From an uncultured Nitrososphaerota archaeon (GTDB taxonomy: Archaea > Thermoproteota > Nitrososphaeria > Nitrososphaerales > Gagatemarchaeaceae), in assembly GCA_963718895.1 (NCBI GenBank), contig CAVRAG010000007.1, positions 576,001 to 640,000 of the forward strand: a stretch of 64,000 bases of DNA. Reading direction: 5' to 3'. Made by a program: the position numbers and the translations under genes. Each line of letters starts with the position of its first letter. Positions within the stretch are counted from its first letter, which is position 1. Shown piece by piece: positions 3,042-14,254 of the stretch. A model generated the notes under the pieces. The model was not told where the DNA came from, made no database searches, and saw only the letters and a list, made by a program, of their open reading frames with translations.

Positions 3042-4099
3042 ACCGGATGCAGCGGGGCGTCGTAGATTCCCTGCTTCTCGTCCAGGCCCAGCATGATGTT
3101 CATTACCTGGACCGCGTTGCCGGCCGCCCCCTTCAGGAGGTTGTCGATCGCGCCGATGGCCACTATCCTGTGGCCCCGCTCGTCGAGCTCGAATCCGACG
3201 TCGCAGAAGTTGGAGCCTATCACGACCTTCGGGTCCGGGAGCCTGAACGGGCCCTTCCTGTCCTTGACCATCCGGACGAACGGCTTGTCGCCGTACTGCG
3301 CCCTGTAGAGCTTCCAGAGTGTCGAGTTCTGTAGATCTCCTTCGTAGAAGACGTGGCACGTCGAGAGTATCCCCCTCACCATGTTCACCGCGTGGGCCGA
3401 CATCGATACGGTCACCCTGCTCTCGCCCAGCCAGGAGAGCTGCTGCTCTATCTCGCCCGTGTGCCTGTGTCCCGCTGGCTTGTACGGTCGGATGACGCCG
3501 TACCTCTCCGAAAAGTGGGTCGATAGAGAGGGCTTGCCGCCCGCGCCAGAGGAAGCGATCTTGGCGTCTACGACTACGTGGTCCCCGTCCACTCGGAAGT
3601 CCCTCTGCTTGAAGAGTGGGGCCATCGCCAGGATCGAGGTTATCGCCATGCACCCGGGCGAGGCAGCGAGGCTCGTCTTCGAGATCTCGTCCCTGTTGAG
3701 TTCGGGGATCGCGTAGACGAACTTGGCGAGCAGCTCGGGGTTGGGGTGCTTGAATCCGTACCACACCTCGTAGTCGGCCGCGTTCTTGAGTCTGAAGTCG
3801 GCACTGAGGTCGACAATCTTCAGGCCCGATGCAGCTAGCTGCGAGATCAGGGAGAGAGACTGGCCGTGGGGCAACGCCGTCAGCACCACGTCGGCCATTC
3901 CCGTGATCTTCGAGACGTCGTTGTCGATGAACTGCATCTCAGTCATCCCCCTCAGGTTCGGGTGGACCCTGAACAGGTACTCGCCTGCGTTCTTCCTGGA
4001 GGTCGCGAAGGCGAGGTCGACCTTCCCGTGCTTCAGGAGTAGTCTGACGAGCTCGCCCCCGGCGTATCCGGAGGCGCCCACAACTCCAACGCGCACCAT
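3038..4099 (-). CDS. lysY: [LysW]-glutamyl/aminoadipyl-phosphate reductase (LysY/ArgC)
   Basis: GASGYAGGE, DLSADFRL, PGC, SSGAG, IDNLLKGAAGNAVQ. Confidence 0.95.
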   Translation of the reverse strand: MVRVGVVGASGYAGGELVRLLLKHGKVDLAFATSRKNAGEYLFRVHPNLRGMTEMQFIDNDVSKITGMADVVLTALPHGQSLSLISQLAASGLKIVDLSADFRLKNAADYEVWYGFKHPNPELLAKFVYAIPELNRDEISKTSLAASPGCMAITSILAMAPLFKQRDFRVDGDHVVVDAKIASSGAGGKPSLSTHFSERYGVIRPYKPAGHRHTGEIEQQLSWLGESRVTVSMSAHAVNMVRGILSTCHVFYEGDLQNSTLWKLYRAQYGDKPFVRMVKDRKGPFRLPDPKVVIGSNFCDVGFELDERGHRIVAIGAIDNLLKGAAGNAVQVMNIMLGLDEKQGIYDAPLHPV

Positions 4100-7890: not shown

Positions 7891-8616
7891 ACGAAATCGG
7901 TCACGCCGGGCGGGATAATCGCGGCTGTTAGAGACGAGATTGACTACGACCTCTCGCTGCAGGACGCTCTGGCAAGGGACTATGCAAACATCAGTGCGGT
8001 CTCCAGGATGATGCAGCCCCGGATTTCGGAGAAGCTGGGAAGAGAAGTGAACATCGAGAGCATCATCACCTCGATGAAACGCCTTCGGGGCGTCTACACG
8101 TTCGCGTCGGAGGAGATCAGGGAGGTGATAGGAGAGAGCGTGGTCAACGTGAGAACGAACGTCTCCAAGATCTCGGTCGAGAAGACGCGGAAGACCCTCG
8201 AGGCCGTGAGCGGCATGCTGGCCAGCCATCAGCACGATTTCCTGCATGTCTCCGAGAGCATCTCGTCGATTACGCTGATCTTCGACCAGAAGCTCCACAA
8301 GCGGATTAGGGACAGGCTCCCCGAATCGGTCATCCTGGAGGAGGGGGACGACTACGCGGCCATCATCGTCCAGAGCCCCATCAAGATCAGGACGACGCCC
8401 GGATGCCTGATCAACTTCTACAACCAGATAGCACGGAGGCACGTCAATATCGAGGACACGGTCAGCTGCCACACCGACACCATCATAGTCGTGAAGATGA
8501 AGGAGGTCGGAAAGGCCTTCACCGCGCTGACAGACCTGATATCGGAGGAGAGGAAGTGGCTCGAGTCGGGCGAGGCGGCGCGCCGCCAAGAGGCGCGAAT
8601 TCGTCAAAGTGTTTAA
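7891..8616 (+). CDS. Helical N-domain plus ACT-like protein, candidate amino-acid-responsive regulator (start uncertain)
   Basis: Frame open from 7879: KSVT...AAVRDEIDYDLSLQDALARDYANISAVSR; C-terminal TPG...NIEDTVSCHTD resembles ACT; divergent from argG, upstream of carA. Confidence 0.7.
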   Translation, partial: TKSVTPGGIIAAVRDEIDYDLSLQDALARDYANISAVSRMMQPRISEKLGREVNIESIITSMKRLRGVYTFASEEIREVIGESVVNVRTNVSKISVEKTRKTLEAVSGMLASHQHDFLHVSESISSITLIFDQKLHKRIRDRLPESVILEEGDDYAAIIVQSPIKIRTTPGCLINFYNQIARRHVNIEDTVSCHTDTIIVVKMKEVGKAFTALTDLISEERKWLESGEAARRQEARIRQSV

Positions 8617-8655: not shown

Positions 8656-9825
8656 ATGGAAAAAACTGAGGGGAGCAACCCGGCCGTCCTTCTTCTGGAG
8701 GATGGTTCGCTCTTCCTCGGAAAGGGCTTTGGTGCGGAGACGACGGCAGTCGCCGAGGTCGTGTTCACGACGGGTATGGTGGGTTATCCCGAATCAATGA
8801 CGGACCCGTCCTATGCTGGCCAGGTTCTGACGTTCACGTTCCCCCTCATAGGGAACTATGGGGTCGCGAGCATGCAGGACCTTGATGTGATGGGGCTGCC
8901 GAGGCAGTTTGAATCGGAGTCCATCAAGGTTAGCGGAATCGTGGTGCAGGAGAACTGCGAGCGCCCGAGCCACTGGGACTCCAGGAGCACGCTGTCGGAC
9001 TGGATGCGCCGCGAAGGCGTGCCTGGCATCAGCGGGGTGGACACGAGGGCGCTGGTCACGAAGCTCAGGGAGAGGGGAGTTATGATGGGCATCCTGGCCA
9101 ACGGGGTGGAACTCTCGTCCAAGAGCGAGCTGCTGAAGCTTCTCAAGCGGTCCACTAAGTACGGTTCTATCGACTTCGTGAGGAGGGTCTCCCCGAAGAA
9201 GGCGAAGGTCTACGGAGACTCCGAGAAGTCCGTGGTGCTACTCGACTGCGGGACGAAGCTCAGCATAATACGCAACCTTCTCACCAGGGGCTACAGCGTC
9301 GTGAGGGCGCCTTTCGACTACTCCTACTCTGACGTCATGAGCCACGATCCGGTCGGGGTCGTCGTTAGCAACGGTCCCGGAGATCCCGTGCTCTGCGGGG
9401 CGACGGTCGCGACGACGGCGAGACTCATCGAGTCCGACGTGCCCACCCTTGGTATCTGTCTCGGGCAGCAGCTCGTCGCCATCTCGCAGGGAGCGACCAC
9501 CTTCAAGCTGAAGTATGGTCACAGAGGGCAGAACAAGCCTATCGTCGACCTGACGTCGGGCAGAGGATTCGTCGCGAGCGAGAACCACGGGTACTCGGTC
9601 GACGGCGCGAGTCTCGGGGGAACCGACCTGAAGCCGTGGTTCGTCAACGCGGACGATAAGAGCATCGAGGGGCTCATCCACTCGAAGAGGTCCTGCATCT
9701 CGGTCCAGTTCCATCCCGAGGCATCACCGGGGCCCTACGACGCCCAGTTCGTCTTCGACAGGTTTGCCTCGCTCATAGAGGGCAGGAAGATGGTAGGTGA
9801 GAAAGTTCGAACCATGAGAACGTGA
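8656..9825 (+). CDS. carA: Carbamoyl-phosphate synthase small subunit
   Basis: EVVFTTGMVGY, TDPSY, SNGPGDP, GICLG, VQFHPEASPGP. Confidence 0.97.
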   Translation: MEKTEGSNPAVLLLEDGSLFLGKGFGAETTAVAEVVFTTGMVGYPESMTDPSYAGQVLTFTFPLIGNYGVASMQDLDVMGLPRQFESESIKVSGIVVQENCERPSHWDSRSTLSDWMRREGVPGISGVDTRALVTKLRERGVMMGILANGVELSSKSELLKLLKRSTKYGSIDFVRRVSPKKAKVYGDSEKSVVLLDCGTKLSIIRNLLTRGYSVVRAPFDYSYSDVMSHDPVGVVVSNGPGDPVLCGATVATTARLIESDVPTLGICLGQQLVAISQGATTFKLKYGHRGQNKPIVDLTSGRGFVASENHGYSVDGASLGGTDLKPWFVNADDKSIEGLIHSKRSCISVQFHPEASPGPYDAQFVFDRFASLIEGRKMVGEKVRTMRT

Positions 9826-12800
9826 AGAAAGCGATAGTCCTGGGAAGCGGGGCAATAAAGATCGGAGAAGCCGGCGAGAGCCGCTAAAGCGGCCGCCAAT
9901 TCGACTACTCCGGAAGTCAGTGCCTCAAGGCCCTGCGGGAAGAAGGCGTCAGTTCCCTTCTGGTCAACCCGAACATCGCTACCATCCAGACCGACTCGAG
10001 GATGGCCGACAAGATCTACTTCCTCCCTGTGAACCCGGACTTCGTCTCGGCGGTGATCGAGAAGGAGCGGCCCGACGCTATCATGCTCGGGTTCGGAGGT
10101 CAGACCGCCCTGAACTGCGGGGTGGGCCTGGCGAGGAGGGGGACGCTCGAGAAGTATGGTCTGAAGGTCCTCGGTACTCCGATCATCGGAATCGAGATAA
10201 CCGAAGACAGGGAGCTATTCAAGGAGGCAATGCAGGACGTCGGAATCTCCGTCCCCAGAAGCAAGCCGGCGTACTCTCTCGAGGACGCTCGGCGGATAGT
10301 CAAGGAGATAGGATACCCCGTCATCCTTAGGGTCGCGTACACCCTGGGAGGAAGAGGCGGTGGCGTCGCGCGGAACGACAGGGAGCTCTCGGAGATCGTC
10401 CAGAGGGGGCTCAACCTCAGCATCGCGCACCAGGTCCTGATCGAGGAGTACATCGGGCACTGGAAGCAGATCGAGTACGAGGTAATGCGTGACAGGAAGG
10501 AGAACAGCATGGTCGTCTGCAACATGGAGAACGTCCTGAGCATGAGGGTCCACACCGGCGACAACATCGTGGTCGCGCCCTCGCAGACGATAACCAACAG
10601 GGAGTACCACATGCTTCGCTCCCTCTCGCTCAAGGCCGCGGCGAGGTGCGGCATCCTGGGCGAGTGCAACATGCAGTTCGCTCTCGAGCCCGGCTCGGAG
10701 CGGTACAACGCGATCGAGATCAACGCCCGGCTCTCGAGGTCCTCGGCGCTCGCGTCAAAGGCCACAGGTTATCCCATTGCGTACATAGCAGCGAAGCTCT
10801 GTCTCGGATACTCACTGGAGGAGCTGAAGAACAAGGTCACCGGAGTGACCACCGCGCTCTTCGAGCCCTCGCTCGACTACGTCGTCGTGAAGATGCCGCG
10901 GTGGGACACCAAGAAGTTCGAGGGAGCCTCGAGGAACATCGGGACGGCGATGAAGTCCATCGGGGAGGTGATGGCGATAGGGAGGAACTTCGAGGAGGCC
11001 CTCCAGAAGGCCGCCAGGATGCTCAACATCAGGTACGACGGCGCCATAAGGAGGTTCGTGGAGACGGACGACCTCGCGGTCCTCAGGGAGAGGCTGAAGA
11101 ATCCCACCGACCAGATAATCTTCGACGTCGTGGAGGCGCTGATGGTGGGCCTCCCCGAAGACGAGGTGAGCAGGCTCAGCGTGATCGACCCCTGGTTCGT
11201 GAGCAAGCTCAAGAACATCGTCGAGATGTACGGTCGCATCACCAAGAGCGGGAAGGAGGGGATTGAGAGGGACCCGACGCTCGTCCGGGAGGCGAAGACC
11301 CTCGGCTTCTCCGACAAACAGATAGCCGCCGCCGTCGGGATGGACGAGGACCACGCGAGGTCGCTGAGGGAGAGGATGGAGATTAGGCCCTGCACGAAGG
11401 TGATAGACACGCTCGCCGCAGAGTGGCCGGCCCGCACCAACTACCTATACATGACGTTCAACGGGACCGAGGACGAGGCCAAGCCGACCAGCGCCAGGAA
11501 GGTCGTGGTCCTGGGGGCAGGCCCCTACAGGATCGGGAGCTCCGTCGAGTTCGACTGGGGTACCATGAACATGGCGTGGGCGCTGAAGGCCAACGGGGTC
11601 GAGGAGGTCGTGGTCGTCAACTGCAACCCCGAGACCGTCTCGACCGACTTCGACATGAGCGACAGGCTCTACTTCGAGGAACTGACCGTCGAGAGGCTGC
11701 TCACGATATACGCCAGGGAGAAGCCGATGGGCCTCGTCCTCTGCGTCGGGGGGCAGATACCGAACGACCTGGCCCTGGAGCTCGACCAGAACGGGGTCAG
11801 CATCCTGGGGACTACCGCGGAGTCCATCGAGCGGGCGGAGGACAGGGAGAGATTCAGCTTCCTGCTCGACAAGCTCGAGATCCCCCAGCCCAAGTGGGGG
11901 AGCTTCAGGTCGACCAAGCAGGCCAGAGACTTCTGCGACGAGGTCGGATACCCCGTGATAGTCCGGCCCTCGCACGTCCTGAGCGGGTCGGCAATGAGGG
12001 TGATCTGGGACAGCAGCGAGCTCGACACGTTCCTCGCGAAGGCCGTCGAGGTCAACCCCAACTATCCGGTCACGATAAGCAAGTTCATCGAGGATGCCAA
12101 GGAGGTCGAGGTGGACGGGATCTCGGACGGGGAGACGACCGTAATAGGCGCCATAATGGAACACGTGGAGAAGGCAGGGGTCCATTCCGGGGACGCCATA
12201 ATGACTATCCCGACCATAACCGTGAGCCCGGTCGCCAAGCAGAAGATGCGTGACTACAGCCGCTCCATCGCTCGAGAGCTCGGGGCGAAGGGGCCGTTCA
12301 ACATCCAGTACCTCGTCATAGGGGACGACGTGCAGGTCATCGAGTGCAACCTGAGGGCCTCCCGCTCGATGCCCTTCGTCTCGAAGGCCACCGGGATGAA
12401 CCTGATCGAGCTCGTCGCCCCGGTCCTCCTTGGAGGCAAGCTCACAGGCATTCAGGACGCGCCGGAGCCGAAGGGGTTCGCCGTGAAGGCGCCCCAGTTC
12501 TCTTTCATGCAGATGGAGGGTGCCGAGCCTACGGTCGGTGTCGAGATGCGGTCGACGGGCGAGGTCGCGTGCTTCGGTGACACTCTGCCCGAGGCCATGA
12601 GCAGGGCCTTGATCGCGTCGGGCCTCAGGATACCACAGAAGGGGGAGATCGGTATCGTGCTCGCGGACGAGAAGTCGGACATGAAGAGGATGAGGTCGCT
12701 CGTGGCGGGGTTCAGGGCGGCGGGCATAGACCTCGTGGCGACTCAGTCGCTCGCCAACGCCCTCGGACAGAGCCTCGCCAGGGCATCGACTACCGACGAG

Positions 12801-12992
12801 ATGGCAGAGATGCTGACGAGCGGCAAGGCGTCGTTCGTCATCTCGCTGAGCACAAATCTCAACAGGATGAGGAAGGACCTGTTCAAGGTCAGGAGGAAGG
12901 CCGTCGAGCTCCAGGTCCCGTTCCTGACGACGCTGGAGGAGGGCGAGGCGATCCTCATGTGCGTACGGTCCCCCCTGAAGAGCCTCATCTAG
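9822..12992 (+). CDS. carB: Carbamoyl-phosphate synthase large subunit, interrupted by a 21-nt candidate intron (1049 aa if spliced)
   Basis: GTG overlapping carA stop; VLGSGAIKIGEAGE|FDYSGSQ...VNPNIATIQTD; two ATP-grasp halves and MGS domain; ORF track starts only at 10002 because of TAA at 9885. Confidence 0.95.
9879..9899 (+). other. Candidate BHB/BHL-type mRNA intron in carB
   Basis: GGCG AG^A GCCGC TAAA GCGGC CGCC AA^T: 4-bp central helix, 3-nt bulges, 5-bp inner stem; removal restores GGC GAG TTC GAC (GEFD). Confidence 0.85.
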
Positions 12993-14254
12993 GACGGACG
13001 TGCGATAGGAAGTCCTTCTTCGGGACGAGCGTCTCAGTCCCGTCCTCGAGGTCCTTGAGCAGGAAGTTCCCCGAGTCGAGTTCCTTCCGTCCGACGAGGA
13101 GCACCCACCTGAAGCCAGTGGAGCTTGCGTCCTCCATCTGCTTCCTCAGGCTCTTGCCGCGGGGACCAACCTCGCTCCTCATTCCCTCTGCCCTAAGTCT
13201 GGCCAGGGCCTCGAGCGCGGTCTCCATCAGCGCAGGCTCAGTGTAGGCCACGTACACAGACACCGTCGGCCTGGCCTGCGGGGCCAGCGAGAGGGCTATC
13301 CTCTCGACACCCCCGGCCGCGCCGGTGGCCGAGAGCTCAGGTCTTCCGAAGAGCTTCGGCAGGACGTCGTAGCGCCCTCCTCCGCACAGGGACCCGAGGT
13401 CCGGGCGTGCCCCGTCCTTGACCTCGAACACTATCGCTGTGTAGTAGTCCAGGCCTCGGACGATGCTCAGGTTGTACTGGACGTTCGAGACTCCCCTCTG
13501 CCTGAGCGCGTCCCTGAGCTCGCCGAGACCCGTCGCGGACTCCAGTCCAGCCTCTTCCAGCCTGGTGAGGACCTTGATCGGGATGGCCCACGGTCCTCCC
13601 GAACTCGAGGAGGTCTTTCATCTCTCCCCGCCCGACCCCTTTGGCCTCGTACTCCCTGACGAGCTCCTCCTCGGTCTTCTTTCCGACCTTGTCGAGGGCC
13701 CTCATCATCTCGCTGGCCTTCTCCTCCGAGGTCACCTTGAGCGTCTTCCTGATGTACTCTTCGACGACCCTCCGGTCGCCCACGTGGAGGATGACCTCGC
13801 TCAGGCCCAACCTCTTGAAGAGGTTGTAGGAGAGGTCCATCACCTCGGCGTCGGAGTCTATCCTGGGATCTCCGAATATCTCGACGTCCCACTGGTAGAA
13901 CCAGCGGTATCTTGCGTGCTGCGGCTCGTCGTACCTCCAGACCCCGCCGTAGGAGGCGAGCTTGATCGGGGGCCTGAGCTCCTTCTTCCCAGCCACATAC
14001 CGGGTCATCCCGACTGTCAGGTCGAACCTGAGCCCGATGTCCCTCTCGCCCTTGTCCTTGAAGTGGTAGATCTGCTCATCGACCTGGGACCCGCTCTTGG
14101 CCCTCAGGACAGAGAGCGTCTCGAGGGGGGCCGGCTCCATCGACCTGAAGTTGTAGGCCCTGACGAGCTCGTCGAAGGCCGTCCTTATCCGGGTGTGGAG
14201 ATCGTACTCGTCCGGATCGATGTCCCGGATGCCCCGCGGCAGGGAGAGGTCCAT
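12985..14254 (-). CDS. hisS: Histidyl-tRNA synthetase; 1-nt frameshift near 13575
   Basis: LPRGIRD, LRFDLT, WRYDEPQHARYRWFYQ, IVRGLDYY, GGGRYD, anticodon domain. Confidence 0.95.

Follow-up and report, generated by a model that had tools for sequence, protein, structure and literature searches.

A probable tRNA-type mini-intron in carB of an uncultured Nitrososphaerota archaeon and its relatives

The carB locus of an uncultured Nitrososphaerota archaeon raises the question of how a complete CarB can be obtained from a gene whose conserved N-terminal motif is interrupted by a stop codon. The window analyzed here is a stretch of 64,000 nucleotides, positions 576001-640000 of contig C7 of the genome (G000, 80.5% complete). 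The locus is surrounded by an arginine cluster with argH- and argG-like open reading frames on the minus strand (named by eye), a gene for an ACT-domain protein (8008-8616, plus strand), carA for the carbamoyl-phosphate synthase small subunit (8656-9825, plus strand; PF00988 and PF00117) and carB itself. The ACT-domain gene lies directly before carA and possibly encodes an amino-acid-sensing regulator of the cluster; a similar gene is also located near carA at locus L255. The carA stop codon TGA (9823-9825) overlaps the carB GTG at 9822. A hisS-like gene on the minus strand (12985-14254) exhibits an apparent single-base frameshift near 13575-13580, as judged by eye, without an intron-like insert. 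Several frameshifts also occur in cbf5 (L223, C7 at about 484800, minus strand), where the HSGTLDP motif is continuous and carries no insert.

Exon 1 of carB (9822-9878, plus strand) ends with IGEAGE and comprises 19 codons from GTG 9822 or 24 from a TCG at 9807. It is followed by 21 additional nucleotides (9879-9899, plus strand), recognized from the sequence, the inserts of relatives and the fold, and by exon 2 (9900-12992, plus strand), which runs from FDYSG to the stop codon and includes ATG 10002, the start chosen by a plain open-reading-frame caller. In IGEAGE/FDYSG, the insert falls between the Glu codon and the Phe codon, and reading on in frame from GTG 9822 gives seven extra codons, with TAA at 9885-9887, before FDYSGSQ is reached. 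When the stop is written as X, the N-terminal sequence can be aligned to a solved CarB structure (1bxr_A, E 1.5e-77), and the sole gap within the first 200 residues is one of seven residues exactly at the insert site. This site lies just after a glutamate which we take to be equivalent to E. coli Glu25, a carbamate tunnel residue.

Decay of the gene or a fault in the assembly would be in keeping with the plain frameshifts found elsewhere in the assembly, in hisS and cbf5. The same 21 nucleotides are, however, present letter for letter in three further genomes of the genus (L002, L004, L006), which excludes an assembly error and bears out the view, put forward in an earlier sequence-only reading of this DNA, of a real structured insert. 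That reading had also suggested looking for another intact carB; a search with exon 2 revealed one carB only in the 80.5% complete genome. Since exon 2 is open over 1031 codons and synonymous positions around the insert are constrained (see below), we regard a dead gene or assembly error as having practically no chance of being correct.

Folding of the region predicts a relaxed bulge-helix-bulge motif (BHL), the elements of which all lie on the plus strand. The outer exon-exon helix is formed by TCGGAG (9862-9867) and CTCCGG (9908-9913), in agreement with pair probabilities and with six pairs in relatives. The central 4-bp helix joins GGCG of exon 1 (9873-9876) to CGCC (9894-9897), and its pairs are conserved or compensated in the 134 distinct inserts described below. 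A 5' bulge AGA of 3 nt (9877-9879), with the cut placed after 9878, leads into an inner stem within the intron (9880-9884/9889-9893), whose loop (9885-9888) holds the TAA. Two unpaired bases (9898-9899) follow the central helix, and the 3' splice site AAT (9898-9900), cut after 9899, is situated in an internal loop; both cut positions are transferred from the RNA of a relative. Pair probabilities of 0.85-0.96 for the central helix, 0.99-1.0 for the inner stem and 0.87-0.97 for five of the six outer pairs were obtained, and the fold was stable across three window sizes. Judged by energy by itself, the fold is unremarkable (z -1.96, with 7 of 200 shuffles equally good), so the case rests on comparison and not on energy. 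Pair 9872-9901 has a probability of 0.0, so that the second 3-nt bulge closed by an exon-exon pair, which defines the strict BHB, is absent; with the 3' site thus in an internal loop, the motif is of the relaxed BHL form. The earlier proposal had left BHB or BHL open: its element positions were all correct (checked for 9862-67, 9873-76, 9877-79, 9879-99, 9885-87, 9894-97, 9898-9900 and 9908-13), and its 5' bulge and helices stand, whereas the 3' side, which it gave as unpaired AAT, is not a strict 3-nt bulge. Removal beginning at 9877, 9878 or 9879 leads to an identical protein in G000; the exact register comes from the RNA of the relative, in which the joint is unambiguous.

The comparison covered relatives at increasing distance. 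A set of 41 genomes yielded 30 carB loci, 28 of them showing the site (G000 included). An insert of 20-24 nt was found in 20/20 such loci of the same genus, again including G000, and in five of eight loci of other families. A pattern scan of named genomes gave at least 120 matches, and 116 of those listed are carB inserts. Among the matches listed, insert-bearing records are titled Nitrosopumilus, Nitrosarchaeum, Nitrosotenuis, Nitrosotalea, Cenarchaeum, Nitrosopelagicus, Nitrososphaera and Nitrosocosmicus, besides others. Together with the exon-2 protein tree described below, these records suggest that the window belongs to Nitrososphaerales. Four of the 120 matches were dropped, three of them being bacterial and not carB (L062, L069, L105) and one (L087) an overlap of the pattern with an intronless carB. 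Five comparable chance matches were removed from a survey of family f12 and the rest of the phylum. The intron occurs in 34 of 61 genomes of f12, and among 150 of 359 matches listed both presence and absence are encountered inside single genera; six genomes of that survey flagged as unpublished were not relied on for any conclusion. In the phylum outside the order, a true insert was detected in two of 336 genomes (L225, L226), with a compensated central helix. Outside the phylum there were three intron matches, in records titled Woesearchaeota, Iainarchaeum and Methanosarcinales. A scan of 350 other genomes in the class of G427, only 11 of which had a carB match, gave no intron match, and the pattern scan of viral contigs gave none either. 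One record titled Heimdallarchaeota (L065) carries a carB insert identical to those of Nitrosopumilaceae; this contig is probably misbinned. Judged by sequence comparison, the insert is not a single case but a widespread, old intron.

While the position of the insert is conserved, its length varies from 17 to 38 nt. A total of 134 distinct inserts were compared. The frame is shifted by 73 of them, the other 61 are in frame and all contain a stop, and none is open. Shuffling gives a mean of 15.0 stop-containing inserts in place of the 61/61 observed, a count which overstates independence because the inserts are kin, 52 of the 61 stops being located at the same codon. Pairs 2-4 of the central helix are kept in 134/134 inserts and pair 1 in 116/134 (G.A in the remaining 18), with compensatory forms in L026, L225 and L226. 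Inner pairs 1-3 are likewise kept in 134/134, with four to five pair types each, and pair 4 in 130/134; the Watson-Crick counts of the stem pairs exceed those of all 2000 column shuffles. Same-site inserts with covarying stems, which the sequence-only reading had proposed to look for at the carB 5' ends of relatives, are hence abundant. An explanation without splicing would be that ribosomes read through the stop, bypass the hairpin by hopping or begin translation at ATG 10002. The G000 insert amounts to seven whole codons, so that read-through of its one stop would keep the frame. Against this, the insert lengths found here in close relatives include 20, 22 and 23 nt, 73 of the 134 inserts are frameshifting, the stop differs by allele (TAA, TAG or TGA) and the insert is absent from the RNA of a relative, while a start at 10002 would lose the first conserved strands. 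We consider translation without splicing extremely improbable.

Direct support for splicing is provided by a relative from another family of the same order (G140, family f15), whose carB (L158) contains a 33-nt insert. Four of 24 listed RNA runs matching L158 were examined. A single skipping joint was observed, 1509->1543, at which 33 bases are absent without register ambiguity (both = 0). It falls exactly two bases past each strand of the central helix, the positions given by the EndA rule of cutting after the second bulge nucleotide, which the sequence-only reading had applied to G000. In run X24 the joint is covered by 774 raw reads with 82 start places, 764 of them in sense-RNA orientation. 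Contigs of X1 show a depth of 1869 for the joined and 155 for the unjoined form, and a contig of X15 is joined as well; X23 has no reads over the junction. In three of four runs, from three studies, the homologous insert was thus removed exactly as predicted. From bin depths, about 86% of the X24 reads are spliced and about 14% unspliced, which is a rough estimate. Many RNA molecules in X24 end at L158:1428, between the Shine-Dalgarno sequence and the likely carB start; this may point to RNA processing there or to an effect of the A-rich stretch on the library.

All RNA data stem from cDNA libraries, and reverse transcription can skip hairpins through template switching. An artefact of this kind at the hairpin, or a cut by a nuclease other than EndA, is nevertheless very unlikely. 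There is no repeat at the joint, the conserved motif is restored, the skipped stretch exceeds the hairpin and obeys the bulge rule on both sides, and the joined form predominates in three studies. From the homologous intron of G140 we infer splicing in G000 itself.

The presumed machinery is encoded in G000, which has two EndA-family proteins (PF01974) and RtcB, all recognized by sequence matches. One EndA gene (L152; 44576-45121, plus strand) probably encodes a structural subunit; the other (L151, contig C8) is of the catalytic type, with crenarchaeal catalytic subunits of two-subunit enzymes as best matches (E 7.6e-41, ungapped over the extra-loop region). The rtcB gene (L153) is located about 6 kb before the window. 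The EndA of G000 is therefore predicted to be able to cut relaxed motifs, and enzymes of the two-subunit type cleave BHL substrates even when these lack a tRNA body, according to the parts of the sources consulted (PMC2724299, PMC4033280).

With these enzymes, splicing would proceed in three steps. The carA-carB transcript folds into the 4-bp exon-intron helix, the 3-nt 5' bulge, the intron hairpin and the outer exon-exon helix, as shown by computed folding and covariation. Two-subunit EndA, the presumed enzyme, would then cut after the second bulge base and two bases past the central helix, at the positions known from the relative's RNA. Finally RtcB, the presumed ligase, would join the exons, restoring Glu-Phe and the frame as in the joined product of the relative. 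Unspliced mRNA would be translated for just 21-26 codons before the stop in the intron loop is reached; CarB, and hence the synthesis of arginine and pyrimidine precursors, would therefore depend on the tRNA-splicing machinery. The need for splicing, already claimed from the sequence, is supported by the conserved site, by 134/134 inserts that block translation, by the compensated stems and by the relative's RNA. Taking folding, cutting and joining together, we are highly confident that the carB mRNA holds an obligatory, ORF-less tRNA-type intron of the relaxed BHB/BHL form. A self-splicing group I or II intron was rejected, since 21 nt compare with a ribozyme core of hundreds of bases and an Rfam scan of 9600-10200 (E up to 1) gave no relevant match, only one chance match on the other strand.

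In a scan of G000 for mRNA introns, carB ranked first of 111 filtered candidates with a score of 0.93, compared to best scores of 0.38 and 0.62 among 113 and 100 candidates in controls with wrong geometry. Other high scorers resemble gene junctions or indels. A relaxed rerun missed carB, and neither run recovered an insert in rnhB; the scan is thus insensitive and says nothing about other genes. The rnhB insert (L222, C8 at about 180550, minus strand) is a stem-loop just after VDEAG.

The exons bear a trace of the intron at synonymous sites. Third-position entropy at codons -6, -5, -2, +2, +3 and +4 amounts to 0.17-0.65 bit where the intron is present but reaches 0.99-1.99 bit where it is absent, in a comparison of 155 intron-bearing rows (including the mis-parsed L172) with 41 intronless alleles; at codons farther from the site the entropy is alike in both. 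Codon -4 is fixed by the search pattern in part of the set, and 44 alleles found otherwise behave alike. L172 was left out of later comparisons, and L052 and L116, with a cut or interrupted exon 1, throughout these comparisons. All six outer-helix pairs are possible in 152/154 intron-bearing, but in only 8/41 intronless alleles. Constraint on entropy and pairing being seen in intron-bearing alleles only, the outer helix is selected only as long as the intron is present.

The start codon of carB deserves separate consideration. A Shine-Dalgarno-like AGGTGA (9795-9800, plus strand), presumably functional, precedes by 6 nt a candidate non-canonical start TCG (9807-9809, plus strand), for which GTG 9822-9824 is the alternative. 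Family relatives (for example L086, L107, L162-L164, L166-L168 and L199) have TCG, ACG or GCG at the position of 9807; a stop codon lies shortly upstream, and ATG, GTG and TTG are all missing in frame ahead of the conserved strand. In G000, carB may start at TCG 9807 behind the Shine-Dalgarno sequence rather than at GTG 9822. That a gene caller starting at ATG 10002 loses N-terminal residues, as had been noted earlier, holds true; the loss of 53 residues given then becomes 53 or 58, since the start may be TCG 9807. C-to-U editing of a TCG start was considered and rejected, as the relative's reads show no such change there. Across L032-L150, L156-L218 and window positions 9795-9824, carB very often starts non-canonically behind a strong Shine-Dalgarno sequence. 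CTG, ATT, ATA, TTT, TCG, ACG and GCG occur at the homologous Met, and several alleles lack ATG, GTG and TTG in frame altogether.

Non-canonical starts, assigned by position at the homologous Met, are found in 75/107 intron-bearing and 10/42 intronless alleles. In seven independent pairs the direction is the same 4.3 times and opposite 0.1 times, which is not significant in a sign test (median p 0.125). Slow initiation might be kinetically coupled to splicing. In a stronger version, splicing would take place in the same way and the intron would be retained as a regulatory gate, the weak start slowing ribosomes and the spliced share setting the CarB level. The start-codon counts, the roughly 14% of unspliced X24 reads and the lack of any insert with an open frame are in line with such a role. 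The non-significant sign test and the positional start assignment speak against it, as do family f1, where the odd start persists in 7/7 intronless alleles, the 18 of 23 Nitrososphaeraceae records that combine the intron with a standard start, and the many losses of the intron. Overall, retention as a gate seems rather unlikely.

How the intron entered carB was addressed with a tree of 149 exon-2 proteins (107 with and 42 without intron), computed by a quick method. On it the intron trait changes state 15 times, at least seven changes being forced by strong branches. Among the branches listed, intronless groups are nested inside intron-bearing clades, so that one old gain followed by repeated precise loss would be the simplest history; horizontal transfer could also be compatible with the tree.

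A hint at the mode of spread comes from outside the phylum, where the three matches share the gene order carA, LAGLIDADG gene (PF14528), carB. Searching metagenomes with the nuclease alone revealed four loci, each with the gene directly before carB and all four with the intron. In total, seven carB loci with an upstream LAGLIDADG gene (L254-L256, L270-L273), possibly related to each other, contain the intron in 7/7 cases. Their free-standing LAGLIDADG genes measure about 410-530 codons from stop to stop. In the class of G427, by comparison, none of 11 intronless carB genes has this gene upstream; nine abut carA and two other genes, as judged by eye. Two of the nuclease loci have a second mini-intron eight codons upstream, 29 nt in L254 (5071-5099) and 34 nt in L271 (approximately 3248-3281), each of which splits a codon and has a long A/U-rich inner stem. 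The window contains no nuclease gene beside carB; there carA abuts carB, as it does in all loci whose upstream sequence was long enough (129 intron-bearing, 44 intronless, nearly all from Nitrososphaerales). In G000 and 40 relatives, the nuclease family was not found save for two weak matches inside long open reading frames.

The association of nuclease and intron suggests spread by collaborative homing. We lean slightly towards an origin in which alleles lacking the intron were cut by a free-standing LAGLIDADG nuclease encoded next to carB and the mini-intron protected its own allele; Nitrososphaerales would later have lost the nuclease, leaving a nearly neutral intron. Somewhat more tentatively, and with chances a little short of even, tRNA-type mini-introns of archaeal protein genes could be regarded as one partner in a bipartite selfish element, the one that confers immunity. 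A free-standing LAGLIDADG nuclease encoded between carA and carB would cut the conserved 5' end of intronless carB, introns of 17-38 nt would block cutting while host EndA erases them from the mRNA, and second introns would arise at neighbouring codons. This extended proposal includes loss of the nuclease and a pairing of the intron, in several Nitrososphaerales lineages, with a very weak start that would give splicing time before translation.

Through the carB intron, a gene of central metabolism from one of the most abundant groups of archaea joins the spliced archaeal mRNAs, and arginine and pyrimidine synthesis is tied to tRNA-splicing enzymes. With RNA support in a relative that has transcriptomes, archaeal mRNA splicing can be studied without hyperthermophiles. 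The findings imply that carB looks truncated or broken in the automatic annotation of many ammonia-oxidizer genomes. Intron presence and absence inside genera provide a natural series for studying loss. How introns of this kind get into protein genes and spread there is a question to which the link with the nuclease gives an answer open to testing. A literature search that covered sources other than subscription journals and supplements found no publication on an intron in carB.

The closest known case is the intron in the cbf5 pre-mRNA, which Watanabe 2002 and Yoshinari 2006 are said to treat. According to the part of Yokobori 2009 (PMC2738675) that was available, it occurs in Desulfurococcales and Sulfolobales and shares with the carB intron a short, ORF-less sequence in a conserved coding motif, an unconventional BHB, cuts between bulge bases 2 and 3, a two-subunit EndA, a variable interior and lineage-specific losses. 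In contrast to cbf5, an RNA-modifying enzyme, carB encodes a core metabolic one. Its intron also differs in distribution (Nitrososphaerales, two further families within the phylum, and records that bear the titles Woesearchaeota, Iainarchaeum and Methanosarcinales), in many more losses, in the link to a free-standing nuclease and in the second intron eight codons upstream at two loci.

Haloferax volcanii HVO_1309 mRNA contains a BHB intron in its 5' UTR (Schwarz 2020, PMC7714728; review PMC10485636, both in the portions consulted). Both mRNAs are substrates of the splicing endonuclease, presumably so for carB, and the spliced form is the major one, as seen for carB in G140. The HVO_1309 intron, however, is situated outside the frame, its cutting enzyme being a homodimer, whereas that of carB interrupts the frame and is of the relaxed BHL form. 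In the passages available, PMC7714728 and the 2023 review PMC10485636 mention no spliced archaeal mRNAs besides cbf5 and HVO_1309, and those of PMC12397907 and PMC6125680 add no further ones. The carB intron is an addition to this known but very small class of archaeal BHL mRNA introns.

Non-canonical tRNA introns of the BHL type, which are substrates of two-subunit and epsilon2 EndA, show the same geometry and size range in the parts seen of PMC4033280, PMC2724299 and PMC12397907, and the same enzymes are expected to act on carB; the outer helix is provided by codons fixed at synonymous sites in carB and by the tRNA body there. In collaborative homing, as far as described in the portion consulted of PMC3984707, a free-standing endonuclease and a group I intron lacking an ORF share the same target, for example in cyanophage psbA. 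Similarly, at seven carB loci a free-standing nuclease gene adjoins a conserved gene that is interrupted nearby by an ORF-less intron. Unlike the psbA case, the carB intron is a protein-spliced BHL of 17-38 nt on a cellular chromosome, with a putative nuclease target and, in the window, an intron that stands without the nuclease.
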